A stretch of DNA of 64,000 nucleotides from a bacterium. GTDB taxonomy: Bacteria; Sysuimicrobiota; Sysuimicrobiia; Sysuimicrobiales; Kaftiobacteriaceae. The number at the start of each line of letters is the position of its first letter. The stretch's first letter is position 1. Location: assembly GCA_035300645.1 (NCBI GenBank), contig DATGVF010000076.1, forward strand, positions 59 to 64,058, read 5' to 3'. Below, piece after piece: positions 14,404-39,873 of the stretch. The notes beneath the pieces were generated by a model that worked only from the letters and a program-made list of their open reading frames with translations, did not search any database and had not been told where the DNA came from. The translations under genes were made by a program, and so were the position numbers.

Positions 14404-14412
14404 GGGGTCACG

Positions 14413-17361: not shown

Positions 17362-17407
17362 GTGAGGAGGTCGGGAGGCGGCACCCTTCCGTGAGCGAGA
17401 TCAGACC

Positions 17408-18789: not shown

Positions 18790-20097
18790 ATGGCGCTGAA
18801 GCTGGACGAACTTACCACTGCGCTGCATAGGGCCCTGGGATCCGGGGGGGTGCAGCTGGCCCCGGGCGCGCTGCGAGCGTGTACTGTCGATGGGATCACG
18901 CCCCACGTGCGGATCGCGCCGGCCGACGTTGAGCAGATCGCGGCTGCGCTGCGTCTGTGTGCCGAGCACGAGGCGGCGGTTGTCCCCTGGGGCGGGGGGA
19001 CGGCGATGCACTGGGGCAATGTGCCTCGCCATGCCGAGGTGGCGCTCAGTCTGGAACGGTTGACGGGGCTGGTCGAACACGATGACGCCAACCTGACGGC
19101 GACCGTGCAGGCCGGCGTGCCCTTAGTGTCGCTCCAAGAATTACTCGGGCGACGAAATCAGTTTCTGGCGATCGATGCGGCGCGTCCGCAACGGGCGACC
19201 GTAGGCGGCATCGTGGCCGCCAACACGAACGGACCACGACGCATGATGTATGGAAGCGTGCGCGACTTAGTGATTGGGATGAAGGTGGTCCTCGCGGACG
19301 GCACGCCGATCAAAGCTGGCGGCAAGGTCGTAAAGAATGTCGCCGGCTACGATATGTGCAAACTGTTTGTGGGATCTCTCGGGACGTTGGGCGTCATCAC
19401 GGAGGCGACGTTCAAGATGGCCCCGCAGCCCGAGACGGCCAGAACAGTCATGGCGCGTGGATCGTTCCCCCAGGCGGCCGAGCTCACGCGTGAGGTGTTT
19501 GCCTCGGCGCTCCTCCCGGCCGCCGTGGCCGTCGTGCACGGGGAGGTGGCCGCATCCGCCGGATTCCCGAGTGAGTCGGTGAGCGTCGCCGTGTGGGCCG
19601 AAGGTTTCGAAGAGGCCGTGGTGCGTCATGTCCGAGACGTGACGGGTATGGCCGAGCGCGGGGGGATGGCAGTAGATGTAGTCGACGGCGCGGGGCACCT
19701 CCGGCTGTGGGAGGTCCTGCGCGACTTCGGCGCGGATGGCATGGCCCCCGCCGTCGTGCGCGTGACAGTTCCTCTGGCGGCGGTGATGGATGTGATTCGC
19801 TTCGTGCAGCAGCCACACGATGGGGCGCTGCCCCAGTATGTGGCCCACGCTGGCACGGGTACCGTCTGGCTCACGATCGCCGACGCCGCCTCTGCCCCGA
19901 CGTGGGTCGGCCGTCTCACTACGATGGCAACGGAGCGTCACGGCCACGTTGTCCTGGCGTCCGCTCCGCCTGAAGTGAAGCGCAGACTTGATGTGTGGGG
20001 TCCGCCCCCGCCGACCCTCAGCTTGATGAAGGATCTCAAGCACCAGTTCGACCCCCACGGGCTGCTCAACCCCGGTCGCTTCGTCGCCCGGCTCTAG
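18790..20097 (+). CDS. glcE: Glycolate oxidase FAD-binding subunit GlcE-like
   Basis: FAD-binding PCMH-type domain; position after glcD/glcF. Confidence 0.7.
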   Translation: MALKLDELTTALHRALGSGGVQLAPGALRACTVDGITPHVRIAPADVEQIAAALRLCAEHEAAVVPWGGGTAMHWGNVPRHAEVALSLERLTGLVEHDDANLTATVQAGVPLVSLQELLGRRNQFLAIDAARPQRATVGGIVAANTNGPRRMMYGSVRDLVIGMKVVLADGTPIKAGGKVVKNVAGYDMCKLFVGSLGTLGVITEATFKMAPQPETARTVMARGSFPQAAELTREVFASALLPAAVAVVHGEVAASAGFPSESVSVAVWAEGFEEAVVRHVRDVTGMAERGGMAVDVVDGAGHLRLWEVLRDFGADGMAPAVVRVTVPLAAVMDVIRFVQQPHDGALPQYVAHAGTGTVWLTIADAASAPTWVGRLTTMATERHGHVVLASAPPEVKRRLDVWGPPPPTLSLMKDLKHQFDPHGLLNPGRFVARL

Positions 20098-20105
20098 CGT
20101 CGTCG

Positions 20106-22214
20106 ATGTCGGGTCGCGTCATTCTCTCGCTGGCCATTCACAATCATCAGCCGGTCGGTAACTTCGCTCACGTCTTTGAAGCCGCGTACCAGCAGGCGTA
20201 CCTGCCGATGGCCGACGCCCTCGCGCGCCATCCCGCCATCCGCGTCGGCCTCCATTACAGCGGCCCGTTGCTGGACTGGCTCGCGCAGTCGCATCCAGAC
20301 TTCTTCCCTCGCCTGCGTGCACTGGTCGCCCGCGACCAAGTGGAGGTCCTGACCGGCGGGTATGACGAGCCCATTTTGGCCATCATCCCAGACGCCGACA
20401 AAGTCGGACAGATTCGCAAGCTCACCGCCTACGTGCAGCGACAGTTGGGCACCCGCGCCCAGGGGCTGTGGCTGGCCGAACGCGTCTGGGAGCCGCACCT
20501 GCCCAAGCCGATTGCCCAGGCGGGCGCCGAGTACACGATCGTGGACGACACGCACTTCCTGGCCGCGGGCCTGTCGGACCAAGACCTGGCCGGCTACTTC
20601 GTGACCGAGGAAGACGGCGCGCTATTGAAGATTTTCCCCAGTCTCAAGCGGTTGCGCTATCTGATTCCCTGGCAACCTCCTGATGAGGTCTTGAGGTATC
20701 TGCGGGCCGCGGAGGCCGCTCCCGGCGCGGACGCCCCCGTTCTTCTCATGGGCGATGATGGTGAGAAATTCGGGCTGTGGCCGGGTACCTACGCGCTCTG
20801 TTGGGAGCGTGGGTGGATCGAGACGTTCTTCAGCGCCGTCGAAGCCGCCTCGGACTGGCTCACGGTCCTCCCGCCCGGTGAGGCGGCTCAGCGTCCCTCC
20901 GAAGGTCGTGTGTATTTGCCCACCGCGTCCTACGACGAAATGATGGAGTGGGTGTTGCCCCCCGACCGTGCGGTGGAATTTTCCGAGATCACACACCGCC
21001 TGGCAGACCGCGGCGATCCGGCCGTGCGCTACCTGCGCGGGGGATTCTGGCGGCAGTTCTTGGTTAAATACCCTGAGATCAACACGATGCACAAGCGCAT
21101 GTTGCGGGTCAGCCGGAAAGTTCACGCGATGCGGGCCGGACCGCGGCGCACCCAAGCCCTCGAGGACCTGTGGGCGGGTCAGTGCAACGAACCGTACTGG
21201 CATGGCGTCTTTGGGGGGATCTACCTCCCGCATATCCGGCGCGCAACCTTCGGACACCTAATCGCCGCCGAAGCGTTGGCGGATCGCGGGCGCGCGGCCG
21301 GGACCGAACAGGCTGACCTGGACGGCGACGGTGCCCCCGAAGTCGAGTTGGCTTCCCCGGCGATGGTCATTACTGCCGATCCCCAAGATGGTGGGGGAGT
21401 GGTCGAATGGCAATGGCGCGCGGCCCGCGTGAACCTGGCCAATGTTTTGTCCCGGCGCCCTGAAGCATACCACCGGCAGCTGCAGCAGCGCCCCGCCGTC
21501 GAGTCGAGCACGCCGGGGGTGGAGACGATTCACTCCACCCGGGTGCGCGTCAAAGAGCCCGGTTTAGAGCGGCTGTTGATCTATGATCGCTACCGGCGGG
21601 CAAGTTTTCTGGATCACGTGCTGGCCCCCGACGCGACGGCGGAGGCATTTGCTCGTGGAGAGTATCAGGAGCTGGGCACCTTCGTGACGGGGCCGTACGA
21701 GCCGACGCTGACGCGCGCGGCGAGTGGCGTGGCCGTCGCGCTGGTGCGCACGGGGAGTGTCACTGTCGCCGGCCGCTCTTTGCTGCTGCGAGTCGAGAAG
21801 CAGCTGGCCGTTTCCCGTCGTGCGCCTGAGCTGACAGCATCGTATCGGTTGCACAATCCCGGCAAGGAGCGTCTGGCCGTCCGGTTTGGCGTCGAAACAG
21901 TGTGGGCGGTAACCGATCCAGCATCGCAGATTCTCATCGATGAGCGATCGGCGCCTGCGCGCGAGATCGCGATGGCGCCTCTGGCAGGCGTGGTGCGGTT
22001 CACGGACTGGGGCTGGCCCGCGGCGGTGTCGCTGCGGCTGCCGCCTGGGGAGGTCTGGCTGCACCCGCTGGAGACGGTCTCCAACTCGGAGGCGGGATTT
22101 GAACGCATCTTTCAAGGAGTGGTCTGCCTCTGTCTGTGGGATGTCACCCTGCAGCCTCAGGAGTCGTGGAAGGCTGCGTTGCAATGCGTTCTGGGTGAAG
22201 GGATCAGCGTCTGA
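20106..22214 (+). CDS. Glycoside hydrolase family 57 protein (alpha-amylase / 4-alpha-glucanotransferase type)
   Basis: LAIHNHQPVGNF N-terminal GH57 signature, ~703 aa. Only 9 nt downstream of the glcE stop. Confidence 0.8.
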   Translation: MSGRVILSLAIHNHQPVGNFAHVFEAAYQQAYLPMADALARHPAIRVGLHYSGPLLDWLAQSHPDFFPRLRALVARDQVEVLTGGYDEPILAIIPDADKVGQIRKLTAYVQRQLGTRAQGLWLAERVWEPHLPKPIAQAGAEYTIVDDTHFLAAGLSDQDLAGYFVTEEDGALLKIFPSLKRLRYLIPWQPPDEVLRYLRAAEAAPGADAPVLLMGDDGEKFGLWPGTYALCWERGWIETFFSAVEAASDWLTVLPPGEAAQRPSEGRVYLPTASYDEMMEWVLPPDRAVEFSEITHRLADRGDPAVRYLRGGFWRQFLVKYPEINTMHKRMLRVSRKVHAMRAGPRRTQALEDLWAGQCNEPYWHGVFGGIYLPHIRRATFGHLIAAEALADRGRAAGTEQADLDGDGAPEVELASPAMVITADPQDGGGVVEWQWRAARVNLANVLSRRPEAYHRQLQQRPAVESSTPGVETIHSTRVRVKEPGLERLLIYDRYRRASFLDHVLAPDATAEAFARGEYQELGTFVTGPYEPTLTRAASGVAVALVRTGSVTVAGRSLLLRVEKQLAVSRRAPELTASYRLHNPGKERLAVRFGVETVWAVTDPASQILIDERSAPAREIAMAPLAGVVRFTDWGWPAAVSLRLPPGEVWLHPLETVSNSEAGFERIFQGVVCLCLWDVTLQPQESWKAALQCVLGEGISV

Positions 22215-24822: not shown

Positions 24823-27072
24823 ATGATCAACACACGAGCTACTGACATTAGGGCACTCTTGGACGGTCGCCCGCTGGTTGTTGTCAGCAACCGGGAGCCC
24901 TATGAACATCGCCACAGCAGTCGCGGGATCATGGTCCATCGTCCCGCGAGCGGTCTGGCAGCGGCGTTGGATCCCGTGTTGCAAGCCGTCGGCGGGACGT
25001 GGGTAGCTTGGGGAAGCGGGGATGCCGACTTCGAGATCGCTGATCACGCGGGGCATGTGCAGGTGCCGCCGCAGGCACCGGCGTACGCCCTCCGCCGCGT
25101 GCGGCTCCCTGATGCGGAGATCCGCGGGTATTATTACGGCTACGCGAATCAGGCGCTTTGGCCGCTCTGCCACATGGCCACGCAACATGTGCGGTTCGTG
25201 CCGTCCCATTGGGAGGCCTATGTCGCCGCCAACCGTCGCTTCGCGCACGCTACCTTGGCCGAGGTGAGTGCCGGGGCAATCGTGTGGGTCCACGACTATC
25301 ATCTCGCGTTGTGCCCCCGCTACTTGCGGCAGGGAAAACCCGACCTGTTCGTGATGAGTTTCTGGCACATCCCCTGGCCCGAGTGGGAGGTCTGGCAGGT
25401 CTGTCCCCAGCGAGGTGAGTTGCTCGACGGTCTGTTGGCGAATGACCTGGTGGGTTTCCAGCATTCCCTCGATGTTCAGCACTTCCTCGAGTGTGCGGAG
25501 CGCGAACTTGGTGCGCAGGTGGACCGCGAGGAATCCATCGTGGACTACAACGGTCACTTGACCCACGTCCAGGCGTTTCCGATTAGTGTGGACGCCGCGG
25601 CGCTGGAGCGCACCGCACGCTCGCCCGCCTGCGAACGGTGGATCGCTCGCCTGCACGACCAGCTCGCCCTCGACGGGCGCCTGATCGCCGTAGGCGTCGA
25701 TCGGCTGGACTACACGAAAGGAATCCCGGAACGGTTGCACGCGTTGGAGGTCCTGTTCCAAAGCGCTCCGGCGTATCGGGAGCGACTGGTTTTCATTCAG
25801 AAGACCGCACCCAGCCGCACGGAGATCAAGAGCTACCGGGATCTTCAGCAGCGCGTGGAGGAGGAGACTGCGCGCATTAATGCGGCCTATGGCACGCCGC
25901 GCTGGCGCCCGATCATCCATTTGCAGCAGGCCATGCCGCAAGAGGGCTTGGCGGCTCTGTACCGGATGGCGGATGTGTGCATCGTGAGTTCGCTGGCGGA
26001 TGGGATGAACTTGGTGGCCAAGGAGTTTGTGGCATGCCAGGTCGATCAGCAGGGCGTGTTAGTGCTCAGCGAGTTGGCAGGGGCGGCGGACGAGCTGCCC
26101 TGGGCGATCTCGATCAACCCGCATGACGCCAAGGGGTTCGCCGCTCGCATCCAGCGGGCGCTTGAGTTAGAGCCAGAGGACCGTCGGGACCGGATGAAAC
26201 ACTTGCGCACGTACGTGGCGGATCACGACATTTTCCGCTGGATGACCGAGCACCTGCGATACGCTCGACACCTTCTTGCGTCCCGCGTCACCACCCACGC
26301 GGTGCTGGAGAGTGCGGCGCAAATCCGTAGCCGCATCAGAGGTCGGCCGCTTGCGCTGCTGCTGGACTTTGACGGCACCCTCACCCCCATCGTGTCCTCT
26401 CCCGAAGGGGCGATGTTGGCCGGAGGCGTACGGGAGACGCTGTCCAAACTGGCTGGTCGGCCTGATACCTTGGTGGCGGTGATCAGCGGTCGGTCACTCG
26501 AGGACATCCGTCACCGCGTAGGGCTGCCCGAGCTGATCTACGCAGGCAATCACGGTCTCGAAATCGCTTGGCAGGACTCCCTCTGGACGCTGCCCGAGGC
26601 CGAGGCGGCACGGGGGGACGTCGCGGAGGTCTGCCGGAGGTTGCGGGTCCGGTTGCGTCGCGTGGCGGGAGTGATCGTCGAGGACAAGGGGCTCACGGCG
26701 AGCATCCACTTCCGGCTGACGCCGTCTTCTCGCCTCGAAGAGGTGCGGGTCGCGGTCCTTGAGGAAGCCGAGCGTGCTCCGCAGCTTGTCGTGCGAGGGG
26801 GCAAGCAGGCGTGGGAACTGTGGCCGAACGTGGCGTGGAACAAGGGCGCGGCGGCCCAGACGATTCTCGGACGCGCCTTCGGCTCCGAGTGGGCACCGCG
26901 GGTCGCCATAGTCTACCTCGGTGATGACCGGACCGATGAAGACGCCTTCATGGCTCTGCCGGACCCGGCCGTGACCGTGAAGGTAGGAAGTCCCACCTCC
27001 CTGACGGCTGCCCGGTATGTCGCGGCGGATGTGGACGAGGTGGCCCAGTTTCTGGAATTGCTGGCCGCGTGA
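24823..27072 (+). CDS. otsA: Bifunctional trehalose-6-phosphate synthase (GT20) / trehalose-6-phosphate phosphatase (HAD) fusion
   Basis: 749 aa. N-terminal ~480 aa are OtsA-like. The C-terminus has the HAD motif LLLDFDGTLTP and YLGDDRTDEDAF (OtsB-like). Confidence 0.85.
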   Translation: MINTRATDIRALLDGRPLVVVSNREPYEHRHSSRGIMVHRPASGLAAALDPVLQAVGGTWVAWGSGDADFEIADHAGHVQVPPQAPAYALRRVRLPDAEIRGYYYGYANQALWPLCHMATQHVRFVPSHWEAYVAANRRFAHATLAEVSAGAIVWVHDYHLALCPRYLRQGKPDLFVMSFWHIPWPEWEVWQVCPQRGELLDGLLANDLVGFQHSLDVQHFLECAERELGAQVDREESIVDYNGHLTHVQAFPISVDAAALERTARSPACERWIARLHDQLALDGRLIAVGVDRLDYTKGIPERLHALEVLFQSAPAYRERLVFIQKTAPSRTEIKSYRDLQQRVEEETARINAAYGTPRWRPIIHLQQAMPQEGLAALYRMADVCIVSSLADGMNLVAKEFVACQVDQQGVLVLSELAGAADELPWAISINPHDAKGFAARIQRALELEPEDRRDRMKHLRTYVADHDIFRWMTEHLRYARHLLASRVTTHAVLESAAQIRSRIRGRPLALLLDFDGTLTPIVSSPEGAMLAGGVRETLSKLAGRPDTLVAVISGRSLEDIRHRVGLPELIYAGNHGLEIAWQDSLWTLPEAEAARGDVAEVCRRLRVRLRRVAGVIVEDKGLTASIHFRLTPSSRLEEVRVAVLEEAERAPQLVVRGGKQAWELWPNVAWNKGAAAQTILGRAFGSEWAPRVAIVYLGDDRTDEDAFMALPDPAVTVKVGSPTSLTAARYVAADVDEVAQFLELLAA

Positions 27073-27084: not shown

Positions 27085-28347
27085 TTACCGCAGAAGGGTC
27101 ACCATCAACGCGAGGTGCTCGGCGAGGTCCCGAGTGATGAGGAATTGTTCGCGGACGTACTCGCGGGCATTGCGGCCCATCTGGGCAGCCTCATCGGGGT
27201 TGTGGAGCAGACGGCGAATGCGGAATGCGCATCCCTCCGCCGAGTTGACCGTGTAGCCGGTGACGCCCCAGATGATCTGCACCGTAATCCCGCCCGCGAA
27301 ACCTCCAATGACGGGTTTGCCTTTCCACATTCCCTCGGCCACGGTGAGACCGAAGCCCTCGCGCGTGGACTTTTGAATGATGACGGTCGCCGCCCGCTGG
27401 AGGGCGTTGATCTCCCGGTGGGCGGTCGGGGGCAGCACGAGCACATGGATGTCCGGATCATCGTTGCGCGCGGTCAGGACCTCGGCTAAGACCTGCGCGC
27501 CTTCCGGGTCATCCTCGGCCGACCCTCCGGCGAGTACCAATCGGCAGTCATCATGCTTTTTCAACAACCGGTAGGCGGTGATGACGCCGAGCGGATCTTT
27601 GAAGTGGTCGAAGCGAGACACCTGCAGCAGGATGGGCTTGTCCTGGGGCACGCCGAGGCGCTGGAGCGTCGCCGTGATCTCCTCGGGGGTGAGGTCGCGG
27701 TTTTTCTCAGAGAGGGGGTCGATGCTCGGATAGATGAGGTATTGGGGAATCGGGAGACGCTGCGCAAACTTCGGTAAGGAGAAGATCGCGGCATCATACT
27801 GCGTGACAAACTGCTGCAAAAACGTCCAGGCGCGGCGTTGTGGTCGCGAGGCGTCGATGTGGCAGCGCCAGACCCACCGTCCGCGCCGCGTGCCATCTGC
27901 TTTGGGTTTGGCAGACGCGATGAGGGCGGCGGGTTGGGGGTCGTGGATGAGCACGACGTCGGCGTCGAGGTTCAGCCGTCGGGCATTTTCCTGATTCGTC
28001 TCCACGTACGTGCGGAGCATCGCATCCGTAAACGATTGGGACTGGCCCTGCAAAGCGTTGTGAAAACTCTTTGTGACCCGGAAGAACTCCTCCGTCCCGC
28101 GGACGACATCCCACCGCGTCGGCACGCCTAACTCTTCAAGCAGCGGCACGTAGCGCTGGAGGAGTTCCGCCACGCCCCCGCCCACCCGCGTGGAGTTAAT
28201 GTGGACCAGCGAGCGGCCGCGGACCCGATCAGCTAGCCGGCGCAAGAGGTCGAGAGTCGAGGCAGGGACGACCGCACGGTAGTCGTCCAAACGCACGGGT
28301 TCGTCCGCGACGCGTTGGCCCGCGGCCTGCCCCTCCGGCATCCTCAC
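27085..28347 (-). CDS. treT: Trehalose glycosyltransferring synthase TreT (GT4; NDP-glucose + glucose to trehalose)
   Basis: VHINSTRVGGGVAELL, LIHDPQPAALIA, WRCHID, REGFGLTVAEGMWKGKPVIGG blocks match archaeal/Thermus-type TreT; 420 aa. Confidence 0.8.
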   Translation of the reverse strand: MRMPEGQAAGQRVADEPVRLDDYRAVVPASTLDLLRRLADRVRGRSLVHINSTRVGGGVAELLQRYVPLLEELGVPTRWDVVRGTEEFFRVTKSFHNALQGQSQSFTDAMLRTYVETNQENARRLNLDADVVLIHDPQPAALIASAKPKADGTRRGRWVWRCHIDASRPQRRAWTFLQQFVTQYDAAIFSLPKFAQRLPIPQYLIYPSIDPLSEKNRDLTPEEITATLQRLGVPQDKPILLQVSRFDHFKDPLGVITAYRLLKKHDDCRLVLAGGSAEDDPEGAQVLAEVLTARNDDPDIHVLVLPPTAHREINALQRAATVIIQKSTREGFGLTVAEGMWKGKPVIGGFAGGITVQIIWGVTGYTVNSAEGCAFRIRRLLHNPDEAAQMGRNAREYVREQFLITRDLAEHLALMVTLLR

Positions 28348-28943
28348 GGGGCGTCTCCCAGGGCGGTATCACAGGCGGTCAGCAGCTGCGCTCGCATGCC
28401 TGCGAGACTGGTCACATACGGATTCAGACGGCGCATCTGAGTCACCACATCGTCCCGCCCGAGCTCAGTCTGGAGCCATGCTAAGGGGTCGGCCTCCGGC
28501 CGGCGGTAGGACTCGTAGAAGTGGTAGTAGATGGCGCTGGTGTCGACCCGTTCTAGCCCATCGCGGAACGCGCGCAGGGTCGTCACCGTGATCCCTGTCG
28601 GCACCTCGATGAGAACCGAGCGCATAAAGTGAAAGGGCTCGCCGTAGTCCGCGCGCGGGACGGTCTGCACGGTCGTGAGGTGGTGGTCGATGATGGTCAC
28701 AAGTTCCGCCCGCAACTGTTCGATGTCCGAGAAATCGAATGGGTCGACCACGGTGAGGCGCTCTCCGAGCACCCGATCGCGGATCTGAATGGCGGCCCAT
28801 GTGGCAAAGTCATTCGGGTAGGGGGCGGCCAAGTACCGGCTGCGGAGGAAGTAACTGCGAGTGTGGTAGGCGATCGATTCTGCAGGGACATCCTCAATGC
28901 CCGCCAGCAATTCGCGCTCGTCCCACGCCGTACGGCCGAGCAT
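28344..28943 (-). CDS. Conserved hypothetical protein, translationally coupled to treT
   Basis: Good GC3 bias; 4-nt overlap with the treT start. Start set at ATG 28943, just after the upstream GH57 stop (ORF open to 29132). Confidence 0.5.
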   Translation of the reverse strand: MLGRTAWDERELLAGIEDVPAESIAYHTRSYFLRSRYLAAPYPNDFATWAAIQIRDRVLGERLTVVDPFDFSDIEQLRAELVTIIDHHLTTVQTVPRADYGEPFHFMRSVLIEVPTGITVTTLRAFRDGLERVDTSAIYYHFYESYRRPEADPLAWLQTELGRDDVVTQMRRLNPYVTSLAGMRAQLLTACDTALGDAP

Positions 28944-28990
28944 CTCGCGGAGCTCCAGGCACTCGACAAACTCAAATGGACGCGCCGCGG

Positions 28991-31387
28991 TCACGGGTGT
29001 GCCTGCAAGATTTCCGCACTCAGGCGGTCCATGTTGAATCCCAGCCGGTCTCCGAGGGTGCGTAGCTGCGGGCCCGCGTCCTGGGCGCGGGCCGTTCGCA
29101 GAAGGCGATAGAAGCGGTTTTGCGCCTCCCACAGATCCAGGGTCAACTCCGCCGCGGCGGCCAGGTCCAAGACCTCGGTGGCCCGTTGGAGGCGGGTGGA
29201 GATGGGCAGGGGGCTGGAGAGGATCTCCTCGAGGCGCTGGCGGAGTAGGGGCTCGAACCGGTCCGCGCGCACTTCGCGTCCCCAGGAGCGGAGTTCGCTA
29301 ACCAGCGTATGAGTCTTCGGCGACAAGGGCTGGTCCGCGGGGGTGGAGAGCTCATCTTCTAAGTCATGGGTCAAGACAGCGACGGCGGCCATGACGATGG
29401 CCGGGGGAATCGGGGCATGCGCGTCCCGCAGGTACTCCATGAGCGTACGATTCTCTTGGTAGACACGTCGATATGTGCCGTCTAGCACCTGCAGTTGCTG
29501 TGCGGTGAGCGCGGCCAGCACGCGCCGGCGGTCGTCCAACAGCAGGTCTCGAAGCGTGAAGTACCCGGGTCCCAGCGCGGTGTCCAAAGTGCGAATCACT
29601 TCGCTAAGCACATCACGGCCGAACTGGCGCAGGAGAGTGGTCCGTAACGCTGCGTAGCGCTCGGCGGGGACTCCCACCTGCACGACGCAGTGAAACTCGT
29701 GGCCCCCGAAGTGGACGACCGCATAGGCGGCTTCTTGGTCTCCCGTGACCACCCATGTCACGCGGATGCGCCCGATCACGAGGACGTGGCCACTGGCTTC
29801 GGTCCGATCCGCGTCAAGCTGACGGATCGTGACCGCTGGCGTGGCAATGTGCACCGACGGCTCGACAATCGAGCGGATAGCATGTGTTGCCACGAGCCGC
29901 GTGGCGGGAACGGCCTGCGGCCGCACGAGTTGTTCGTACACCACCGCGCCGTCCGGATACGCCGTCGTGTTCCCGGGCGCCCCCCGCAGCCGCCCGACGT
30001 AAGGCTGCTCCAGTGTGTCATCCCAGGCACTGGCGAGGTCTATCGCACGGGACGCGTGTGTCAGGATCTGGACCGTCTCCCCCCCGGCGACGTCGTTGAA
30101 GAACCAGCCGTCGCTGCTCTGCATTAGCATTCCCTGGCGCTGCATTTCCAGCAGCCGAAGCGCAGTACTGCGTTGCTCCGTGGAGAGCTTGGTCGCAGCG
30201 TGCCGACCGAAGAAGGCTTCCAGCGCGCCGGGCTCGGGATCGATGAGGTCGATGGCGTCATCCCGCGCCGCCCAGGGGTCTTTGAGCAGCGCGCTTCCGT
30301 GTTGCTCGTACAGGCGGTCCAGCTCCTGCTTCAGCCACGTCATGGCCTCGCGCACAGGCGCCCGCCACCGCTGATGCGTGTTGGGGTCAGTGCGGTCCCC
30401 ACAGTCTGCGCGCCACCGCTCGACCCCATGCGGGCAACTCCACGATGTGCGCTCGCGGATGTCAACTTCTCCTGTGGGCGGGTGCATCGCGAGATAGGCC
30501 CCCAAGTTGGTCAGGCGGACCGCACCGTCGGCGGTCAGCCCCTGCAGCGCCGAGGCGAGCGCCATCTCGCCGAAACGGTGGTGGTGACCATAGGATTCGC
30601 CGTCAGTGGCGACGGCGCGGATGCGGGCGCCCCCATCGGGTAAGGGCGCTGCGAGCCTCTGGGCGAGGGCGGCACCGTCATTGAGGAGGCCTTCGAAGGC
30701 GATCGCCCGCGAGACGCTTGCGTCGTAGAAGAAGATGACAATCGATCGCCCACTGGGTAGACGGCACCGGTACGGGACCGTCGTGTCGAACTGTCCGTCG
30801 TGGACCTCGGTCCAGGGGCTTTCCGGGCTGCTGCGAACTCGTCCCGCTTGATGGGGGGCTAGAATGGTGAACGTCACGCGTTGGGCGGCCAGCACCTCCA
30901 ACGTGGGCACGTCGACCGCGGTCTCCGACAGCCACATTCCTTCTGGCTGGCGGCGGAATCGGCGCGCAAAGTCCTTGATGCCCCAGACGACTTGAGTGAC
31001 CTGATCCCGAGGAGACGTCAGGGGCATGATCACGTGGCTGTAGACCTGCGCCATGGCGTTGCCGTGTCCGAACTGCGCCTGCCGGCTGGTCCGATCCGCC
31101 TCCAGGATCGCCGCGTAGACCTCGGGGCTCTGACGCGCGAGCCACCGCAGCAACGTCGGACCGACATTGAAACTGATGCTGGCGTAGGTGCTGATGATGC
31201 GCACGATGCGCTTGGCGTCGTCGAGGATGCGCGCAGCTGCGTTGCGCGCGTAGCATTCGGCGGTCACGCGCTCATTCCAGTCGTGGTAGGGTGCGGCAGC
31301 CTCTGCGGGCGGGACGGCGTCAAGCCAGGGGTTTTCTCTGGCGGGTTGGTAAAAGTGTCCGTGGACGCAAACCCAGTGTGAGCTCAT
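28991..31387 (-). CDS. GH57-family protein with a long C-terminal extension (GH57 plus DUF3536-type architecture)
   Basis: N-terminal VHGHFYQPARENPWL signature, 798 aa. Confidence 0.75.
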   Translation of the reverse strand: MSSHWVCVHGHFYQPARENPWLDAVPPAEAAAPYHDWNERVTAECYARNAAARILDDAKRIVRIISTYASISFNVGPTLLRWLARQSPEVYAAILEADRTSRQAQFGHGNAMAQVYSHVIMPLTSPRDQVTQVVWGIKDFARRFRRQPEGMWLSETAVDVPTLEVLAAQRVTFTILAPHQAGRVRSSPESPWTEVHDGQFDTTVPYRCRLPSGRSIVIFFYDASVSRAIAFEGLLNDGAALAQRLAAPLPDGGARIRAVATDGESYGHHHRFGEMALASALQGLTADGAVRLTNLGAYLAMHPPTGEVDIRERTSWSCPHGVERWRADCGDRTDPNTHQRWRAPVREAMTWLKQELDRLYEQHGSALLKDPWAARDDAIDLIDPEPGALEAFFGRHAATKLSTEQRSTALRLLEMQRQGMLMQSSDGWFFNDVAGGETVQILTHASRAIDLASAWDDTLEQPYVGRLRGAPGNTTAYPDGAVVYEQLVRPQAVPATRLVATHAIRSIVEPSVHIATPAVTIRQLDADRTEASGHVLVIGRIRVTWVVTGDQEAAYAVVHFGGHEFHCVVQVGVPAERYAALRTTLLRQFGRDVLSEVIRTLDTALGPGYFTLRDLLLDDRRRVLAALTAQQLQVLDGTYRRVYQENRTLMEYLRDAHAPIPPAIVMAAVAVLTHDLEDELSTPADQPLSPKTHTLVSELRSWGREVRADRFEPLLRQRLEEILSSPLPISTRLQRATEVLDLAAAAELTLDLWEAQNRFYRLLRTARAQDAGPQLRTLGDRLGFNMDRLSAEILQAHP

Positions 31388-31450
31388 CTCAGGCCGCCCC
31401 AGGGTGACAGCCCGACCAGCGCAGGGGGGCGTCGGCAGTCGGGGGCGTCC

Positions 31451-32659
31451 TCATTCCCGCGCGCGCGTGGGTCCCCTCGGCAGTACCGTGATCCCCGCTT
31501 CTCCGGCGCTCCCGTCGACGCCGAGACGCGTTCCGTTCTCGATGACGTTGTAGCGGTCGGCGATCACCCGTCGCAGCCGTGCCCCGGCGCCCACGACCGT
31601 GTGGTCGAGGAGGACCGACTCGTCCACAACCGCTCCCGGCAACAGGCGGACATCCCGTCCGAGGATTGACCGGCGCACGGTGGCGCCGTCGATGATGGAC
31701 CCTTCGCCGAGCTGGCAATCCACGATTGTCCCATCGACGATGCGTGCGGAGGGGCCGCGGTAGGGGGCCGTGTGGATGGGCCAGGACCGATTGGCCAGTT
31801 CGAACTTGGGCGTGCGCCCGAGCAAGTCCATGTGCGCCTGCCAATACGCCTCAATCGTTCCGACGTCGCGCCAGTACCCGACTTCCTCGTAGGGCTGGAT
31901 CCCTGGGAGGGCATTGTCCAGAAAGTTGTACGCATACACGCGCGTGTGGGGGACAAGTTCAGGCAGAATGGTGCGACCAAAATCATGGTCGGTGCTGCGT
32001 CGGGCATCTTCGATCAACGCGTCCACCAACACCTCACGCGTGAAGAGGTAGTTGCCCATGGAGGCGAGACACCGGGTCGGATCCCCCGGCATCGGCGTGG
32101 GAGACGCGGGCTTTTCTTCAAACCGCACGATCCGACCGTCCGCCTCTGTGGCGATGATCCCAAAACTGCTGGCTTGGCTCACCGGCACAGGGAGAGCGGC
32201 CACGGTAATGTCGGCCCGGCGCTCCTGCGCGAACGCCAGCATCTGCGTGATGTCCATGCGGTAGATGTGGTCGGACCCAAAGATGGCGACCATGTCCGGA
32301 GCGAAGTCTAGCAGCAGGTTCAGGTTTTGGTACACGGCATCGGCCGTGCCCTGGTACCACGTCTCGCCCCACCGCATCTGCGGGGGGACAACGATGACGA
32401 AGTGGTCCGGCAGCCCCCCCAAGCGCCAGGCGTTGCGCAGATGTTCGATCAGTGACTGGGCTTTGTATTGGACCAGGACATACAGCGCGTAGACGCCCGA
32501 GTTGACGAAGTTGGACAAGACGAAATCGATGATTCGGTATTTGCCGCCAAAGGGCACGGCGGGTTTTCCCCGCTCACGGGTGAGCGGGTATAGCCGTTCG
32601 CCTTTGCCGCCGGCGAGGATGAAGGCCAGGACACGCGGACGGGTCATCGAGGCCGTCAC
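31451..32659 (-). CDS. glgC: Glucose-1-phosphate adenylyltransferase
   Basis: ILAGGKGERLYPLTRERGKPAVPFGGKYRIIDFVLSN N-terminus plus C-terminal left-handed beta-helix. Start may be ATG 32647. Confidence 0.9.
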   Translation of the reverse strand: MTASMTRPRVLAFILAGGKGERLYPLTRERGKPAVPFGGKYRIIDFVLSNFVNSGVYALYVLVQYKAQSLIEHLRNAWRLGGLPDHFVIVVPPQMRWGETWYQGTADAVYQNLNLLLDFAPDMVAIFGSDHIYRMDITQMLAFAQERRADITVAALPVPVSQASSFGIIATEADGRIVRFEEKPASPTPMPGDPTRCLASMGNYLFTREVLVDALIEDARRSTDHDFGRTILPELVPHTRVYAYNFLDNALPGIQPYEEVGYWRDVGTIEAYWQAHMDLLGRTPKFELANRSWPIHTAPYRGPSARIVDGTIVDCQLGEGSIIDGATVRRSILGRDVRLLPGAVVDESVLLDHTVVGAGARLRRVIADRYNVIENGTRLGVDGSAGEAGITVLPRGPTRARE

Positions 32660-34368
32660 GCCGCGGTGGTGCGGGAGGCCTCCACGACATGCGTCAGCAC
32701 GTCAGGGAACACAAAGTTTTGCGCTTCACGGGCTGCCAGGAATTCCTCATCCCCCGCAGGCATCGTTCCTCCGGATGCGACATGATGGAGCATCTGCGCG
32801 AGGCGGGTAAACGTCGCATAGTGCTCGGCGACGCGGGCCTCGGCGTAGTCGCGCGCGGCCCACGTCGTAATCAAGAACTGCCAGTCCGACGCCTGCAGCA
32901 AGAGCAGTTCGCGAGCGAGTTGGCTGAGAAGGCGCCGGCCGGACTCGCTGGCTCGCATGTTGGGTTGCTTGGCTAGGGTCCAGAACTCGTCCTCGGCTCC
33001 GTACACCCGTTCCCACGTCCACTCTGTCTCGTGGTTTAACCAGACCCGGTGATCGCCGCCTTCTCCCCACGACCCTTCAAGGAGGGTCGTCGTCTCTTGT
33101 GGGGGGCGGGCTTGGAGCGCAGTGACACAGTCCTGCGGCACAATACCGGCCTGCGGCAAGCGGGCGAAGACTTCCTGCAGCCAGCGGGGACCTTCAAACC
33201 ACCAATGCCCAAACAACTCCGTGTCGTAGGGGCTGCACACGATCGCCTGCGGTCCATCGGGGGCCGCCGCGAGCACGCGGTGCAAGAGATCGGTAAAGTG
33301 TTCAGCGTGTGCGCGGGTCTGCTCCTGGGCCCGAGTTGGATCGTAAGGGAGTTTGGCGCCCAGATCGGTCTTCGCCTCGGTGACCCGCCAATAGCGCAGT
33401 CCTCCGGGGAAGTGTTTCTTGTGAAACTCGAGGTACCACCCATCGCCTGGGTAACCCCGTTCTCGGCTCCAGACCTGTAGGGTCGTCTCGGGATCCCGCA
33501 CGAATGCGGCGGCGCTTCCTCCTCCTCCACGGGACGCGATGAGGTACGGCCGGTATGGCGAGCGATCGGGTCGATAGGAGGGGGGTTGAGGACCGGGCAC
33601 TAAGTGCAGCGCCGGGTAATAATCACGGTACGCGGACAGCGGACTTCCGCCGCGCATCAGGTGCGTATCGGTGATGAAAAACTTGATGCCGAACTGGGCC
33701 AAGAATTCTTCGATCCCGCGGCGGCGGAGATGGACGCGGCCCTTGTGGGGACCGACAGGCGGCGTCCACTCGTAGCGGGGGCGGTACCCGCACTCCGGTA
33801 ACCAGATGCCTCCCGGAGGTCGGCCAAAGTGCCGCTGATGTGTGGCCACGGCGACGCGCAACTGCAAGTCCACCGACTCTTCGCGGCTGAGAAGCGGCAG
33901 GTACCCGTGGGTGGCCGCGCAGGTGATGAGGGTCAGGTGCCCTTCATCAGCGAGGTGGCGGAAGCGGCCGAGCAGATCTCCATTGAGACGTTCGAACTGC
34001 TCGAGCCGGTCGCGATAGAGACGTTCCCACCCCGTGGCGAGGTTGGCCAGATCCCCCCGTCCTGCGGCTTCAAACTCCGTGCGGTTCTCCCGGGCTGACT
34101 GGATGCGGGCTCGCAAGTAGTCGTCGAATTCGGTGCGAAACGCGGCCGAGGCAAGTTGCTCAGCCAAGACCGGGGAGATATCGATCGTCATGTGGGGCGA
34201 GATGCCGGAAGCAGTGAGCGCAGTGGCGGCGTCCAGCAGGGGGAGGTAGCATCCGACCGCCACTTCCATCAGCCAGTCGCTCCCGTGCGGCCATTTCCCA
34301 TGTCCTATGACAAAGGGGAGATGCGAATGCAGGACGAGGGCAAAGTAGCCGATGGGTTGCGCCGCCAC
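32656..34368 (-). CDS. GH57-family 1,4-alpha-glucan branching enzyme
   Basis: FALVLHSHLPFV N-terminal signature of GH57 branching enzymes; 570 aa; GTG start with a strong GAAGGAG RBS. Confidence 0.8.
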   Translation of the reverse strand: MAAQPIGYFALVLHSHLPFVIGHGKWPHGSDWLMEVAVGCYLPLLDAATALTASGISPHMTIDISPVLAEQLASAAFRTEFDDYLRARIQSARENRTEFEAAGRGDLANLATGWERLYRDRLEQFERLNGDLLGRFRHLADEGHLTLITCAATHGYLPLLSREESVDLQLRVAVATHQRHFGRPPGGIWLPECGYRPRYEWTPPVGPHKGRVHLRRRGIEEFLAQFGIKFFITDTHLMRGGSPLSAYRDYYPALHLVPGPQPPSYRPDRSPYRPYLIASRGGGGSAAAFVRDPETTLQVWSRERGYPGDGWYLEFHKKHFPGGLRYWRVTEAKTDLGAKLPYDPTRAQEQTRAHAEHFTDLLHRVLAAAPDGPQAIVCSPYDTELFGHWWFEGPRWLQEVFARLPQAGIVPQDCVTALQARPPQETTTLLEGSWGEGGDHRVWLNHETEWTWERVYGAEDEFWTLAKQPNMRASESGRRLLSQLARELLLLQASDWQFLITTWAARDYAEARVAEHYATFTRLAQMLHHVASGGTMPAGDEEFLAAREAQNFVFPDVLTHVVEASRTTAA

Positions 34369-34484: not shown

Positions 34485-35402
34485 TTAGCGCGCGATCCGG
34501 CACCATTCCACCGTCGTCCGCAGACCGTCCACCAGTGGAGTGGTGGGCGTCCATCCCAACCATTGCGCCGCGTGAGACGGGTCGATCGCAATCCGATAGA
34601 CTTCGCCGGGACGCGGAGCAGCATGCAGCGGGTCGCCCTGAAAGCCGCTGAGCGCGGCGAGGTGGCGCGCGATATCGTTGACCGATGTTTCCACGCCGGT
34701 GCCGATATTCACCAATCCGGACGTCGGAACTGCGGTCGCCAGGAGATTGGCCCGCGCGACGTCTTCGACGAAAACGAAGTCGCGCGTCTGTGTGCCGTCT
34801 CCGAAGATCGTCGGTGCCCGCCCATCGAGCATCGCCGCGGCGAAAATCGCAATGACACCAGCCTCCCCGTGGGGATCCTGCCGCGGACCGTAGACGTTGG
34901 CGTAGCGCAAGATGGCCCACGTCACCCCGGCCCCTTGAAAGTACCGCACATAGTACTCGCCGGCGAGCTTGCTAATCCCATAGGGCGAGAGGGGAGTCGC
35001 GGGGTGATCTTCTGTGGCAGGCAGGGCGCATGGCTCGCCGTAAATCGCGCCTCCGGTCGATGCAAAGACGATGCGGCGTACGCGGTGTTGCGCGCACAGG
35101 GTCAGGAGGTGCAGAGTGCCCAGCACGTTGACGTCCGCATCCGCCCGGGGATCGGCGACTGAGGCGACGACCGACGCCTGCGCCGCATGGTGGTTGACGA
35201 CCTCGGGCCGTTCGCGTTCGAAGACGTCACGAAGGCGCGGGGCCCGGAGATCTACCTCATATAGGCGCGCGGAGGAGTTGACGTGGTCGCGCTGACCCCT
35301 CGTGAGGTTGTCCACCACGGCGACCTGGTGGCCGGCGGCGATGTAGGCGTCGACGACATGCGAGCCGATGAACCCGGCCCCTCCCGTGACAAGGACTTTC
35401 AT
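34485..35402 (-). CDS. NAD-dependent sugar epimerase/dehydratase (UDP-glucose 4-epimerase-like SDR)
   Basis: MKVLVTGGAGFIGSH Rossmann motif, YxxxK-type SDR, 305 aa. Confidence 0.8.
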   Translation of the reverse strand: MKVLVTGGAGFIGSHVVDAYIAAGHQVAVVDNLTRGQRDHVNSSARLYEVDLRAPRLRDVFERERPEVVNHHAAQASVVASVADPRADADVNVLGTLHLLTLCAQHRVRRIVFASTGGAIYGEPCALPATEDHPATPLSPYGISKLAGEYYVRYFQGAGVTWAILRYANVYGPRQDPHGEAGVIAIFAAAMLDGRAPTIFGDGTQTRDFVFVEDVARANLLATAVPTSGLVNIGTGVETSVNDIARHLAALSGFQGDPLHAAPRPGEVYRIAIDPSHAAQWLGWTPTTPLVDGLRTTVEWCRIAR

Positions 35403-35485: not shown

Positions 35486-36025
35486 TTACCGAGGAGGGCC
35501 GGACTGCGGGCCTCTATTCCCGAATACCTCGAGCCGTCCGTTCGGAATCGTCCACACTTCTCCGCTGGATGTCCGGATCTGGATCGTTCGGATGCCGACC
35601 CGTTCCACGGTCCCCGTGTGCGTTTCGTAGGTGATGACATCGCCAACGTGGACCAGACCCTCCGAGAGGAGAGCGATCCCCGCCAGCACGTCGCGGACCA
35701 GATGCTGCGCGCCCAGACCGAATGCCAAACCCACGACCCCTGCGCTAGCAAGAATTGCCGTGACGTCCACGTTCAGGCGTTGCAGGATTATGATGAAGGC
35801 CGTGAAGTACACCACAAACCGGACCGCCCTCTCCACTAGTGGCTCCAATGTCTGCCAGCGCATTTCGTCCATGAGCCGGGCGGCAGGCGCCCGTAGCGTC
35901 CGGCGGATTAGGACCCCCGACAGACGTAGGGCCACTGCGGCGCCGATGAGGATCAGGGCGATCGTTCCCACAGGGTCGAGCCAGCGGATGGCGTCGCGCA
36001 GGGCAGCCCACCGATCGGCGCTCAT
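35486..36025 (-). CDS. Short MscS-family mechanosensitive channel protein (lacks the C-terminal alpha-beta domain)
   Basis: Pore-helix region GVVGLAFGLGAQHLVRDVLAGIALL plus a beta-domain GDVITYETHTGTVERVGIRTIQIRT; only 179 aa. Confidence 0.6.
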   Translation of the reverse strand: MSADRWAALRDAIRWLDPVGTIALILIGAAVALRLSGVLIRRTLRAPAARLMDEMRWQTLEPLVERAVRFVVYFTAFIIILQRLNVDVTAILASAGVVGLAFGLGAQHLVRDVLAGIALLSEGLVHVGDVITYETHTGTVERVGIRTIQIRTSSGEVWTIPNGRLEVFGNRGPQSGPPR

Positions 36026-36104
36026 GACGTGCTTGGGACGTGGACACGACGTATCGCGCGAGATGCCGATCGCATCGGACTGATGCGGGCAGGAGTCGTG
36101 CGCT

Positions 36105-36464
36105 TCATGACCGGCGGCGACGAAACGAGCGCGGGGGAGGCGGGACGGGCGCCGGGGCGGCGGGCCGCCGCCGCGGACGGTGTTGCGTCACGAACTGGGC
36201 CGCGGTGGTGACGCCCTCGAGCGGTACGGTCCCGAGCCGCCAGCGGATGGCGCGGATCACTTCGCCGCGCGTCATTTCAGGGACCGGACGCGGGGAGATC
36301 TTCCAGGGGCGTGATTTCTCCAGCAACGCCAGGAGCTGTCGCTGCACCTGCATCGGCAACTGGACGGAGGCGACTTTCACCTGTTCGCGCAATTCACGCA
36401 GTCGCCGGATTTCCGATCCTGATAACCGCGTCGTCCCGCGGGGAAACGGGAGGTCACTCACCAC
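36105..36464 (-). CDS. Hypothetical small basic protein (Pro/Arg-rich C-terminus)
   Basis: 119 aa, strong GC3 bias; no recognisable motif. Confidence 0.35.
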   Translation of the reverse strand: MVSDLPFPRGTTRLSGSEIRRLRELREQVKVASVQLPMQVQRQLLALLEKSRPWKISPRPVPEMTRGEVIRAIRWRLGTVPLEGVTTAAQFVTQHRPRRRPAAPAPVPPPPRSFRRRRS

Positions 36465-36549
36465 CGTGTAGTTCGCCTTGGGGGAGGTTGTCTACCTGTC
36501 GGTCCTGTGGGCAGGTGTTGCCTACGCATCGGCGAAGGGGAGCACCGTG

Positions 36550-37596
36550 ATGCGGGTGGAATCCTCGGTGCGCGCGCCGCGCGATCCTCACGGGATGTTG
36601 CAATTGATCCAGCGCTTCCCCCAGATGTGTGAGGAAGCGTGGGGGCTCCCCGCCGAGCCGGCAGGACGGATCCCCTCGCCCCAAGCCATCGTCGCGTTGG
36701 GGATGGGCGGATCCGGAATCGGGGGCGATCTCCTCCGCGCTGTGCTCTTCGATGAAGCCGTCGGCCCCGTCATCCCCGTCAAGGAATACCGTGCGCCCGC
36801 CTTCGTGGGGCCGCAGACGCTCGTGATCGCTTGCAGTTACTCCGGGGACACCGAGGAAACGCTAGCGGCCTATGACGAGGCGACCAACCGCGGCGCGCCC
36901 TGCGTGGCGATCACCTCCGGCGGGGCGTTGTTGAAGCGCGCGCAGCAGAGGCGGCACCCTGCTGTCGTGGTCCCGCCCGGGCTGCCTCCCCGCGCGGCTC
37001 TCCCGTACTTGTTCCTCCCCATGCTGGCGGTGTTGGCGCGAGCTGGGGCGGTGCGATCCTTTGATGCCGACCTGCGCGAAGCCGTGGATGTGCTGCGGCG
37101 TGTCGTTGCCGACTACACTCCGGACCGCTCCGAGAGCCCCGCGCGGCGGCTCGGGGAGGCGCTGAGCGGGCGCATCCCCGTAGTCTACAGCGGCGTCCCG
37201 TTCCTCGAGCCCGCCGCCGAACGCTGGAAAGACCAATTTAACGAGAATGGCAAGACCGCAGCGGTGTGGAACACCTTTCCCGAGCTCAATCACAATGAGA
37301 CCGTCGGCTGGGGGTTGGATGCCGCGCTGGCCGCAGTGCTGCACGTCATCATTCTCCGGGATGCGGTCGAGGCGGACAGGCTGGCGCGGCGTGTGGCGAT
37401 CACGCGGGAACTCGCGTTCGCGCGGGCGGGAGGGATCGACGAGGTGCGCGCCATCGGGAAAGGGAAGCTGGCGCGATTGCTCTCGACGATCCTGATCGGC
37501 GATTTTGTCAGTTGGTGCGTGGCAGTGCAGCGCGGGGTCGATCCCTATCCGGTCGCCGTGATCGATGAGCTGAAGCGCCGTTTGGCGCAGCCGTGA
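36550..37596 (+). CDS. Bifunctional phosphoglucose/phosphomannose isomerase (SIS domain, archaeal/Thermus-type PGI/PMI)
   Basis: GMGGSGIGGDLL and CSYSGDTEET SIS motifs. ATG 36550 with an AAGGGGAG RBS (ORF open from 36478; ATG 36595 also possible). Confidence 0.7.
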   Translation: MRVESSVRAPRDPHGMLQLIQRFPQMCEEAWGLPAEPAGRIPSPQAIVALGMGGSGIGGDLLRAVLFDEAVGPVIPVKEYRAPAFVGPQTLVIACSYSGDTEETLAAYDEATNRGAPCVAITSGGALLKRAQQRRHPAVVVPPGLPPRAALPYLFLPMLAVLARAGAVRSFDADLREAVDVLRRVVADYTPDRSESPARRLGEALSGRIPVVYSGVPFLEPAAERWKDQFNENGKTAAVWNTFPELNHNETVGWGLDAALAAVLHVIILRDAVEADRLARRVAITRELAFARAGGIDEVRAIGKGKLARLLSTILIGDFVSWCVAVQRGVDPYPVAVIDELKRRLAQP

Positions 37597-38853: not shown

Positions 38854-38873
38854 GGTCTGTCGTGGGAGTCGCT

Positions 38874-39752: not shown

Positions 39753-39873
39753 CCCGCTACCTCCTCAGACCTATATCTCGCGATCCGGCTTTCGTACTCT
39801 TCCTGCCTCGCGTAGGGGATTCCTATCCGCGACCCACGCCGCGGGGGCCCCGACACCCTTGAGAGCAGAGCAA

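Follow-up and report, generated by a model that had tools for sequence, protein, structure and literature searches.

The closest described counterpart of the locus considered here is the orfY-treT gene pair of the archaeon Thermoproteus tenax. Kouril et al. 2008 (Arch Microbiol 190:355) reportedly characterised the T. tenax TreT, with orfY given as an open reading frame (ORF) of unknown function upstream of treT. We analysed a window of 64,000 nucleotides (nt) from a bacterium of the family Kaftiobacteriaceae (Sysuimicrobiota; contig DATGVF010000076.1, positions 59 to 64,058), in which a minus-strand operon of five genes, between positions 27,085 and 34,368, ends in a bacterial orfY-treT pair. 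As in T. tenax, a gene for a DUF5752 protein of 216 amino acids (aa) overlaps the downstream gene for a GT4-type TreT by 4 nt, and the window TreT shares about 55% identity with the Thermoproteus-type enzyme. A fused TPS-TPP protein (TPSP) is present in T. tenax as an organism (PMC3634074), and in the window at the locus itself. The T. tenax pair is archaeal, whereas that of the window is bacterial, its OrfY being only 22% identical, and belongs to a longer operon that also encodes GlgC, a branching enzyme of family GH57 and a GH57 protein carrying a DUF3536 domain (GH57/DUF3536).

A second T. tenax system, the msc-gt-tpsp operon, links the trehalose-phosphate synthase complex to a small mechanosensitive channel; trehalose serves as a compatible solute there, and a role in the stress response has been proposed (PMC3634074). 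Both loci pair a fused TPSP with a short MscS-like channel devoid of a large cytoplasmic domain (179 aa in the window, 197 aa in T. tenax). However, the GT4 activator gene that adjoins TPSP in T. tenax does not do so in the window, where the channel gene lies upstream of the glycogen/TreT operon and not beside TPSP. Homology between the bacterial and archaeal small channels could not be demonstrated.

We read the window locus, with a probability of about 0.55, as an osmotic- or desiccation-stress module that links trehalose and alpha-glucan metabolism and in which OrfY would be a partner of TreT without catalytic function. The operon is conserved and tightly coupled, its OrfY belongs to the DUF5752 family, OrfY and TreT are linked almost without exception in both bacteria and archaea, and fusions of OrfY to MscS channels and to maltokinases recur. 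The five genes are as follows.

32656..34368, minus strand: GH57 glycogen branching enzyme, 570 aa (Pfam GH57 and BE_C)
31451..32659, minus strand: GlgC, glucose-1-phosphate adenylyltransferase (NF002023 and TIGR02091, both above cut-off)
28991..31387, minus strand: GH57 plus DUF3536 protein, 798 aa (Pfam; a divergent GH57 subfamily)
28344..28994, minus strand: OrfY, a DUF5752 protein, 216 aa (PF19027; longest ORF 28344-29132)
27085..28347, minus strand: TreT, trehalose glycosyltransferring synthase of the GT4 type (EC 2.4.1.245; TreT_GT1 and Glycos_transf_1)

All five ORFs of the preliminary description of this DNA were recovered at these positions, and its domain calls agree with the Pfam and NCBIfam profile searches on which our domain assignments of window ORFs are based. 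The 4-nt overlap it gave for the branching enzyme and glgC is a GTGA, with the glgC GTG (32659) on the branching-enzyme stop; an alternative glgC start used by the public gene call (ATG 32647) would leave an 8-nt gap. Between glgC and the GH57/DUF3536 gene lie 63 nt. For orfY, either a start at ATG 28943 or an overlap with the GH57/DUF3536 stop had been considered. The overlap stands, as a GTGA with the start at GTG 28994 and a product of 216 aa, and the ATG does not, because the Pfam match opens 13 residues upstream of the Met at ATG 28943, the N-terminal motif PFEFVxCxEL is kept in homologues, and public gene calls yield the identical 216-aa product. The overlap of orfY with treT, previously given as ATGA, also reads GTGA in the sequence (treT GTG 28347, with an alternative ATG start two codons downstream). 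These GTGA overlaps at both ends of orfY suggest translational coupling to the neighbouring genes. A strong ribosome-binding site had been ascribed to the first gene alone; its AAGGAG is indeed the strongest, but treT has a GGGAG 8 nt before its GTG. In a consensus scan, no minus-strand terminator-like site was present inside the operon, and the lone promoter-like match there was at chance level. An Rfam search of window positions 19000-40000 found no RNA family, and the 116-nt leader before the branching-enzyme gene has no unusual structure (z = 0.38). Eleven independent genome loci show these five genes in the same order, with protein identities of 55-98%, and the arrangement is therefore not due to chance.

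Gene neighbourhoods of DUF5752 were scanned in one genome per species, giving 67 loci. In 65 of these (65/66 evaluable), TreT comes immediately after DUF5752 and is encoded on the same strand, the exceptions being one contig end and one genuine case (locus L021), and the median distance between the two matches is 26 nt. These loci span at least five phyla, with members in Armatimonadota, Thermodesulfobacteriota/delta, Binatia, Methylomirabilota and Nitrospirota. The OrfY homologue of Pyrobaculum likewise precedes TreT, with a fused TPS-TPP, a GT4 gene and the gene for a small membrane protein nearby, and on a contig with the exact sequence of the crystallised OrfY (PDB 4CSO) the gene overlaps the TreT gene start by 4 nt. 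The complete five-gene order is limited to the 11 loci mentioned, from an Armatimonadota-like group. Near orfY-treT, TPS/TPP is found in 24 of the 67 loci, GlgC in 24 and GH57/DUF3536 in 25; elsewhere, TreY-like and TreZ-like GH13 enzymes are encoded upstream of OrfY, and genes for GlgE, TreS and maltokinase are among those downstream. OrfY-TreT forms the conserved core, in surroundings that vary and are always related to trehalose or alpha-glucans, and glgC, the branching enzyme and GH57/DUF3536 are lineage-specific additions, found partly in Binatia too. The preliminary description had predicted, from the position of the unknown gene between glgC and treT, a role in an ADP-glucose-to-trehalose pathway. 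The tie to TreT is borne out in 65/66 loci, but a role in ADP-glucose chemistry is not, because with a conserved core of only OrfY-TreT the embedding alone assigns none to OrfY.

The varying surroundings also raise the question of whether a glycogen operon (branching enzyme, glgC and GH57) simply abuts an independent orfY-treT unit with no functional coupling between the two. Outside this lineage orfY-treT does occur without glgC, branching enzyme or GH57/DUF3536, and the 63-nt gap downstream of glgC would suit such a boundary. However, GH57/DUF3536, orfY and treT are linked in turn by GTGA overlaps, no terminator-like site interrupts the operon, and the five-gene order is kept in its 11 loci down to 55-65% identity. 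In addition, GlgC-GH57/DUF3536-OrfY-TreT recurs in loci labelled Binatia or Deltaproteobacteria (L038, L043 and L052; L054 ends before TreT), and a DUF3536-type GH57 is also part of a Pontibacter trehalose/GlgE cluster (PMC11206854). We regard mere adjacency as highly improbable.

Some of the scanned loci have features of their own. In L021 (4136-6149), a 1.3-kb AT-richer stretch without a long ORF lies between DUF5752 and a GlgC-like gene. Two adjacent OrfY-TreT pairs occur in the NC10-type loci L047 (10001-15737) and L073 (3354-9499), and in one pair of such NC10-type loci OrfY carries a maltokinase-like N-terminal part. A second TreT paralogue (43-45% identity) is encoded on the other strand, without a neighbouring DUF5752 gene, in L014 (10659-11768, minus strand) and L015 (7487-8545, minus strand), so that TreT paralogues with and without OrfY share one locus. 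Two Nitrospirota loci (L057, 9384-9980; L049, 9424-9993) have a YtxH-like gene of about 190-200 aa, from a general-stress family, between a TreY-like GH13 gene and OrfY, as part of the string MscS-GlgC-TreY-YtxH-OrfY-TreT-GlgE-TreS-Mak. Finally, three loci with the five-gene order (L008, L003 and L009; 70-84% protein identity) carry the label Gemmatimonadetes or 'Bacillati bacterium ANGP1', which points either to inconsistent taxonomy or binning of metagenome-assembled genomes (MAGs) or to lateral transfer of the operon.

What had been described as an unknown without assigned function proved, in the profile search, to belong to a named family, DUF5752 (PF19027; 182.3 bits, with the cut-off at 23, and a match spanning positions 2-207 of the 208 in the profile), with a solved structure (PDB 4CSO). 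The window protein shares the fold of 4CSO. The two are related by sequence as well: the 4CSO sequence itself falls in PF19027, and a profile built from bacterial DUF5752 proteins matches it over its full length (E = 3e-19). The window protein is 99% identical to that of 'Armatimonadetes bacterium 13_1_40CM_64_14', a soil MAG, and we take the source to be an uncultured soil member of the Armatimonadota. OrfY consists of two tandem copies of a module some 105 aa long (residues 1-112 versus 113-216, hhalign probability 97.8%, E = 1e-12), and five residue pairs, F7/F121, F9/F123, H44/H158, D62/D169 and W66/W173, are near-invariant in 110 diverse members that include archaeal proteins and fusion domains. 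Family-wide invariants are limited to the paired FxF, H and DFxxW motifs. The bacterial subfamily conserves H44, D62, R72, D73, R74, E78, H105, R114, E119 and H158, and its extra invariants (for example RDRVLGE and GEPFHFM) are missing from the archaeal OrfY of T. tenax. All members examined are acidic, with isoelectric points (pI) of 4.9-6.0 and net charges of -4 to -11. Neither an enzyme fold nor a DNA-binding fold is among the structural neighbours of OrfY, and it matches no enzyme family in Pfam or NCBIfam. The tandem repeat, the few family-wide invariants and the acidity are indications that OrfY is probably non-catalytic and not DNA-binding. In our literature search, no paper mentioned DUF5752, none linked OrfY with Thermoproteus, and nothing relevant turned up for the structure 4CSO.

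Gene fusions associate OrfY with further partners. Among the best 150 representatives of 707 DUF5752 clusters, 10-11 are fusions of MscS (transmembrane, TM, helices plus beta domain) to DUF5752, and 5 are maltokinase-DUF5752 fusions. At most 17 residues part the MscS beta domain from DUF5752, which therefore replaces the MscS alpha-beta domain. TreT directly follows the MscS-OrfY fusion in all four contigs examined, two of which have the overlapping-gene string TPS-TPP-[MscS~OrfY]-TreT. A maltokinase-OrfY fusion is also followed by TreT, in a cluster that includes a TreS-like gene and a second OrfY. Whatever partner OrfY is fused to, TreT remains adjacent. The window itself has a small MscS gene upstream of the operon.

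35486..36025, minus strand: truncated MscS-type channel, 179 aa (Pfam MS_channel_1st, PF21088, and MS_channel_2nd, PF00924)

This channel consists of TM helices and beta domain only, including the pore-lining TM3, and is without the C-terminal alpha-beta domain; its match to the NCBIfam MscS model spans positions 18-175 of 280. A length of 178-179 aa is conserved in the related loci L001, L004 and L006, so that the protein is not the product of a pseudogene. The protein stops 14 aa past the PNGRL motif, the very point at which DUF5752 starts in the MscS fusions. MscS-family channels with swapped C-terminal sensor domains are known, as in the cyclic-nucleotide-binding bCNG channels, and in these MscS paralogues the ligand-sensing domain sits where DUF5752 sits in the fusions. 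Unlike in bCNG-type channels, MscS and DUF5752 are separate genes in the window, and the MscS-DUF5752 fusions examined are always followed by the gene of a biosynthetic enzyme, TreT.

A possibility that we put forward tentatively, and with low confidence, is that OrfY is a detachable cytoplasmic sensor domain of MscS that also binds or regulates TreT. Fused OrfY would take the place of the MscS alpha-beta domain, free OrfY would dock onto the truncated 179-aa MscS, and in both cases there would be a direct coupling of compatible-solute synthesis to the tension of the membrane or to the trehalose level inside the cell; the maltokinase fusions would extend this coupling to the conversion of trehalose to glucan. 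The paired His/Asp/Trp motifs of the two OrfY repeats might form a pseudo-symmetric site for trehalose, which is C2-symmetric.

Other apparent fusions were rejected. Long ORFs that seem to join GH57/DUF3536 to DUF5752 (L052, 7661-10642; L038; L054) are spurious, arising from stop-poor frames of high-GC DNA, and a long 'TreT-plus' ORF (L047, 10611-13100) is likewise an artefact of an open alternative frame. They were discarded because the upstream translation is RG-rich nonsense, or because the ORF has no Pfam match and lies in another frame than the real gene. Stop-poor alternative frames in high-GC DNA could deceive naive fusion searches.

The molecule name of 4CSO, 'ORFY PROTEIN, TRANSCRIPTION FACTOR', suggests a different role for OrfY, namely regulation of the treT operon at the DNA level, and small regulators are commonly encoded beside their putative target genes. 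The uniform acidity of the family speaks against such a role, and C-terminal fusions to MscS channels and maltokinase-like enzymes are ill-suited to a free DNA-binding regulator. The stop/start overlap with TreT, moreover, suggests a matched output beyond what a regulator usually needs. We therefore consider a transcription factor improbable. An enzymatic role in the pathway, for example as a phosphatase or hydrolase giving free glucose, or as an isomerase acting on the TreT product, would fit the His, Asp, Glu and Arg residues conserved in the bacterial subfamily. Most of these residues, however, are kept neither family-wide nor in T. tenax OrfY, similarity to enzyme folds and to Pfam or NCBIfam enzyme families is lacking, and the way in which OrfY replaces a structural or regulatory domain in the channel fusions better fits a sensor; an enzyme appears very improbable. 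We favour OrfY as a non-catalytic partner of TreT that acts as a sensor or adaptor, because of the translational coupling, the repeat architecture with its paired binding-type motifs, the acidity, the lack of an enzyme-like fold and the use of OrfY as the cytoplasmic domain of channels.

The enzymes of the operon can be assigned with differing precision. TreT matches PF21269 (TreT_GT1; 191.6 bits, E = 6.7e-57) and PF00534 (Glycos_transf_1; 88 bits), and aligns with the Thermoproteus uzoniensis enzyme 6ZJ4 over residues 25-416 (E = 4.4e-119, about 55% identity, 401 bits) and with P. horikoshii TreT 2X6Q over its full length (E = 1.3e-105, 357 bits). Its score against NF041139 (TreT_Thcocales) is 389.5 bits, below the cut-off of 775; that model is specific for Thermococcales, so the failure speaks only against membership of this clade. 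The window enzyme is thus a close relative of characterised TreTs, and the use of nucleoside-diphosphate (NDP)-glucose donors proposed for it earlier agrees with the donor range of these enzymes, which accept ADP-, UDP- and GDP-glucose (review PMC11046441). This makes it plausible that GlgC feeds TreT. GlgC itself scores above both of its cut-offs (NF002023, 526.6 bits against 458; TIGR02091, 426 bits against 424.9).

GH57 branching enzymes have the fingerprints HxHLP in conserved sequence region (CSR) I and ELF(Y)GHW in CSR-IV (Xiang et al. 2021, quoted in PMC11206854), and the window branching enzyme has both, as HSHLP and ELFGHW. It matches the solved GH57 branching enzymes 5WU7 (E = 5.7e-131), 3N8T (E = 2.6e-127) and 1UFA (E = 1.7e-115) as well as PF09210 (BE_C, 74 bits), and scores below the lineage-specific equivalog cut-offs of NCBIfam (485 versus 1000, 479 versus 920). 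The 798-aa protein, in which a GH57 domain is followed by DUF3536, has neither fingerprint, reading HGHFY and ESYGHH instead. A sequence search against the PDB found nothing for it, and a fold search places it among GH57 enzymes. About 280 C-terminal residues of this protein, to which the preliminary description had assigned no function, have no structural match. E155 (in WLSE) and D262 (in TDGE) are invariant in 27 homologues, and we take them, in view of the conserved regions of GH57, to be the candidate catalytic pair (CSR-III nucleophile and CSR-IV acid/base, respectively). This DUF3536 branch of GH57 has at least 8,000 homologues.

Two characterised proteins, PoGH57 from Pontibacter sp. 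and Amo45, a Thermocrinis-like metagenomic protein, have the same architecture of GH57, DUF3536 and a C-terminal extension, and are likened to the window protein by architecture and motifs. PoGH57 has the same CSR-I (HGHFY) and a nearly identical CSR-IV (ESYGHH in the window protein versus ETYGHH), and its gene lies among trehalose/GlgE-pathway genes, a setting akin to that of the window (PMC11206854). Reports on such enzymes conflict as to whether they are hydrolases or 4-alpha-glucanotransferases (PMC4017763, PMC11206854): Amo45 leaves polymers intact and cleaves a maltotrioside substrate alone (PMC4017763), while PoGH57 trims chains above a degree of polymerisation (DP) of 6 to DP3-4 and has been interpreted as a 4-alpha-glucanotransferase and not a branching enzyme (PMC11206854). 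In contrast to the weak chain trimming or maltotrioside cleavage measured for these two, the activity of the window protein is putative.

The following genes near the operon are also part of the scheme proposed below.

24823..27072, plus strand: fused bifunctional TPS/TPP (TPSP; GT20, PF00982, E = 1.6e-130; Trehalose_PPase, PF02358, E = 6.9e-40)
19995..22214, plus strand: GH57 protein of the alpha-amylase/4-alpha-glucanotransferase type, 739 aa (GH57, AmyA-A_glucT_m, AmyA-gluTrfs_C)

The TPS-TPP reaches 655.1 bits against the bifunctional equivalog model NF011071 (cut-off 634), and its gene and treT converge, their stop codons lying 12 nt apart. Because the fused TPS-TPP lies beside TreT, the locus encodes two independent trehalose routes, as Thermoproteus and Pyrobaculum also do. 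The 739-aa protein is the third GH57 of this sugar island and has a homologue in 7 related loci.

We propose that GlgC would convert glucose-1-phosphate to ADP-glucose and that TreT, with donor and direction as predicted from its relatives, would join NDP-glucose to free glucose to give trehalose. GH57/DUF3536 may trim alpha-1,4 chains of a stored glucan or short maltooligosaccharides and, together with the 739-aa glucanotransferase-type enzyme, may supply the free-glucose acceptor. The branching enzyme would tie the same ADP-glucose pool to glycogen, so that carbon could pass from glycogen to trehalose, a compatible solute, and back. TPSP would provide a second route to trehalose, and MscS would release solute upon osmotic downshift. 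OrfY, presumably made in step with TreT through translational coupling, would be a sensor or adaptor tying TreT activity to the osmotic state, its mechanism and ligand being conjectural; in some organisms the osmotic link would be direct, OrfY being the cytoplasmic domain of an MscS channel.

The same genes could be read in the catabolic direction. TreT would then run in reverse (trehalose + ADP to ADP-glucose + glucose), as proposed for Thermococcus litoralis, and imported or stored trehalose would be recycled into glycogen via ADP-glucose and the branching enzyme. This would account for the presence in the island of a sugar-binding protein (22382-23653) and of a MalK-like ATPase (37717-38817), for branching enzyme and GlgC as glycogen-synthesis genes, and for maltokinase, TreS and GlgE, which lead from trehalose to glucan, flanking orfY-treT in Nitrospirota and NC10 loci. 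However, no ABC permease genes were found beside the binding protein or the ATPase, a TreT that supplied ADP-glucose would make GlgC redundant, and a second synthesis route (TPSP) together with MscS fits solute synthesis. Window TreT is also nearer to the Thermoproteus enzyme than to that of Pyrococcus (401 versus 357 bits), and the Thermoproteus TreT pathway has been described as unidirectional, for synthesis only (PMC3634074). A catabolic role is in our view doubtful.

Several observations weigh against a stress module with OrfY as partner of TreT. Protein functions at the locus are read here from genes, and that GH57/DUF3536 yields glucose for TreT is solely what we infer. TreT of Thermococcales is reversible and located in a sugar-uptake cluster, and flux at the locus might accordingly run in either direction. 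Glycogen synthase and glycogen phosphorylase were not found among the annotated ORFs from about 10,200 to 63,900 (the first 10 kb or so were not scanned). Only 11 of the 67 loci have an MscS gene no farther than 10 kb from orfY-treT, and this gene is truncated solely in the Armatimonadota group. The 194-aa membrane protein of Pyrobaculum gave no BLASTP match to the window MscS and only a sub-threshold hit to MS_channel_1st_1 (E = 0.05). The most conserved segment of OrfY (residues 52-81) is the lowest-confidence part of the predicted model, and the depositors of the archaeal crystal, as stated above, named the protein a transcription factor.

The preliminary description had viewed the five genes as a dedicated module for ADP-glucose to trehalose and/or branched glucan. 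A conserved, tightly coupled unit it is, but its extent was drawn too narrowly, since MscS, an epimerase and TPS-TPP also belong to it, and a self-contained branched-glucan module is not established because no glycogen synthase occurs among the ORFs annotated from about 10,200 to 63,900. The remaining features of the island and its surroundings are listed below.

22382-23653, plus strand: sugar-binding protein, lone, after the 739-aa GH57 gene
34485..35402, minus strand: NAD-dependent sugar-nucleotide epimerase/dehydratase, GalE-like (Pfam Epimerase, E = 1.7e-60)
36040-36471, plus strand: ORF of 143 aa, no Pfam/NCBIfam match
36478..37596, plus strand: bifunctional phosphoglucose/phosphomannose isomerase (NF006426, 336 bits, cut-off 295)
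37717-38817: MalK-like ATPase, lone, beyond the MscS gene
38862-39815, plus strand: ORF of 317 aa, no Pfam/NCBIfam match

In 8 related loci the epimerase gene is likewise found upstream of that for the branching enzyme; the window epimerase scores 186.7 bits against the galE model TIGR01179, under the equivalog cut-off of 262. The isomerase gene is divergent from the MscS gene, which it also adjoins in L001, L004 and L006, and marks the edge of the sugar island, whose layout is kept in these three loci. The 317-aa ORF has a third-position GC content of 0.62, versus about 0.78 in its neighbours, and may be foreign or not a real gene. The island is flanked by genes for a glycolate-oxidase-like system, acetyl-CoA carboxylase, ArgRS, RF and H+-PPase. 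The first of these (14284-18745, plus strand) consists of two FAD-linked oxidase genes followed by an Fe-S/CCG-domain gene, resembles glycolate oxidase GlcDEF and is unrelated to the sugar island.

For soil and thermophilic microbes, trehalose is a main protectant when they are exposed to drying, salt or heat, and to our knowledge little has been reported on how its synthesis is switched at the protein level beyond the OtsA/OtsB route. The component families of the locus and the orfY-treT pair of one archaeon were already known. Judged by the literature that we searched, several findings appear to be new: the bacterial operon in which orfY-treT stands together with genes for GlgC, a branching enzyme of family GH57 and a GH57 protein of the DUF3536 type, the wide and nearly invariant linkage of OrfY with TreT, the duplication within OrfY, and its fusions to MscS and maltokinase. 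A pair once described in an archaeon (2008), and crystallised without a function, is now seen to be a widespread and near-invariant unit in at least five bacterial phyla. The DUF3536 branch of GH57 is placed in a glycogen-to-trehalose setting, which hints at its substrates. The link to MscS is the valuable lead, as it offers a concrete hypothesis for DUF5752: a possible direct physical link between an emergency solute-release valve and the enzyme that makes the solute.

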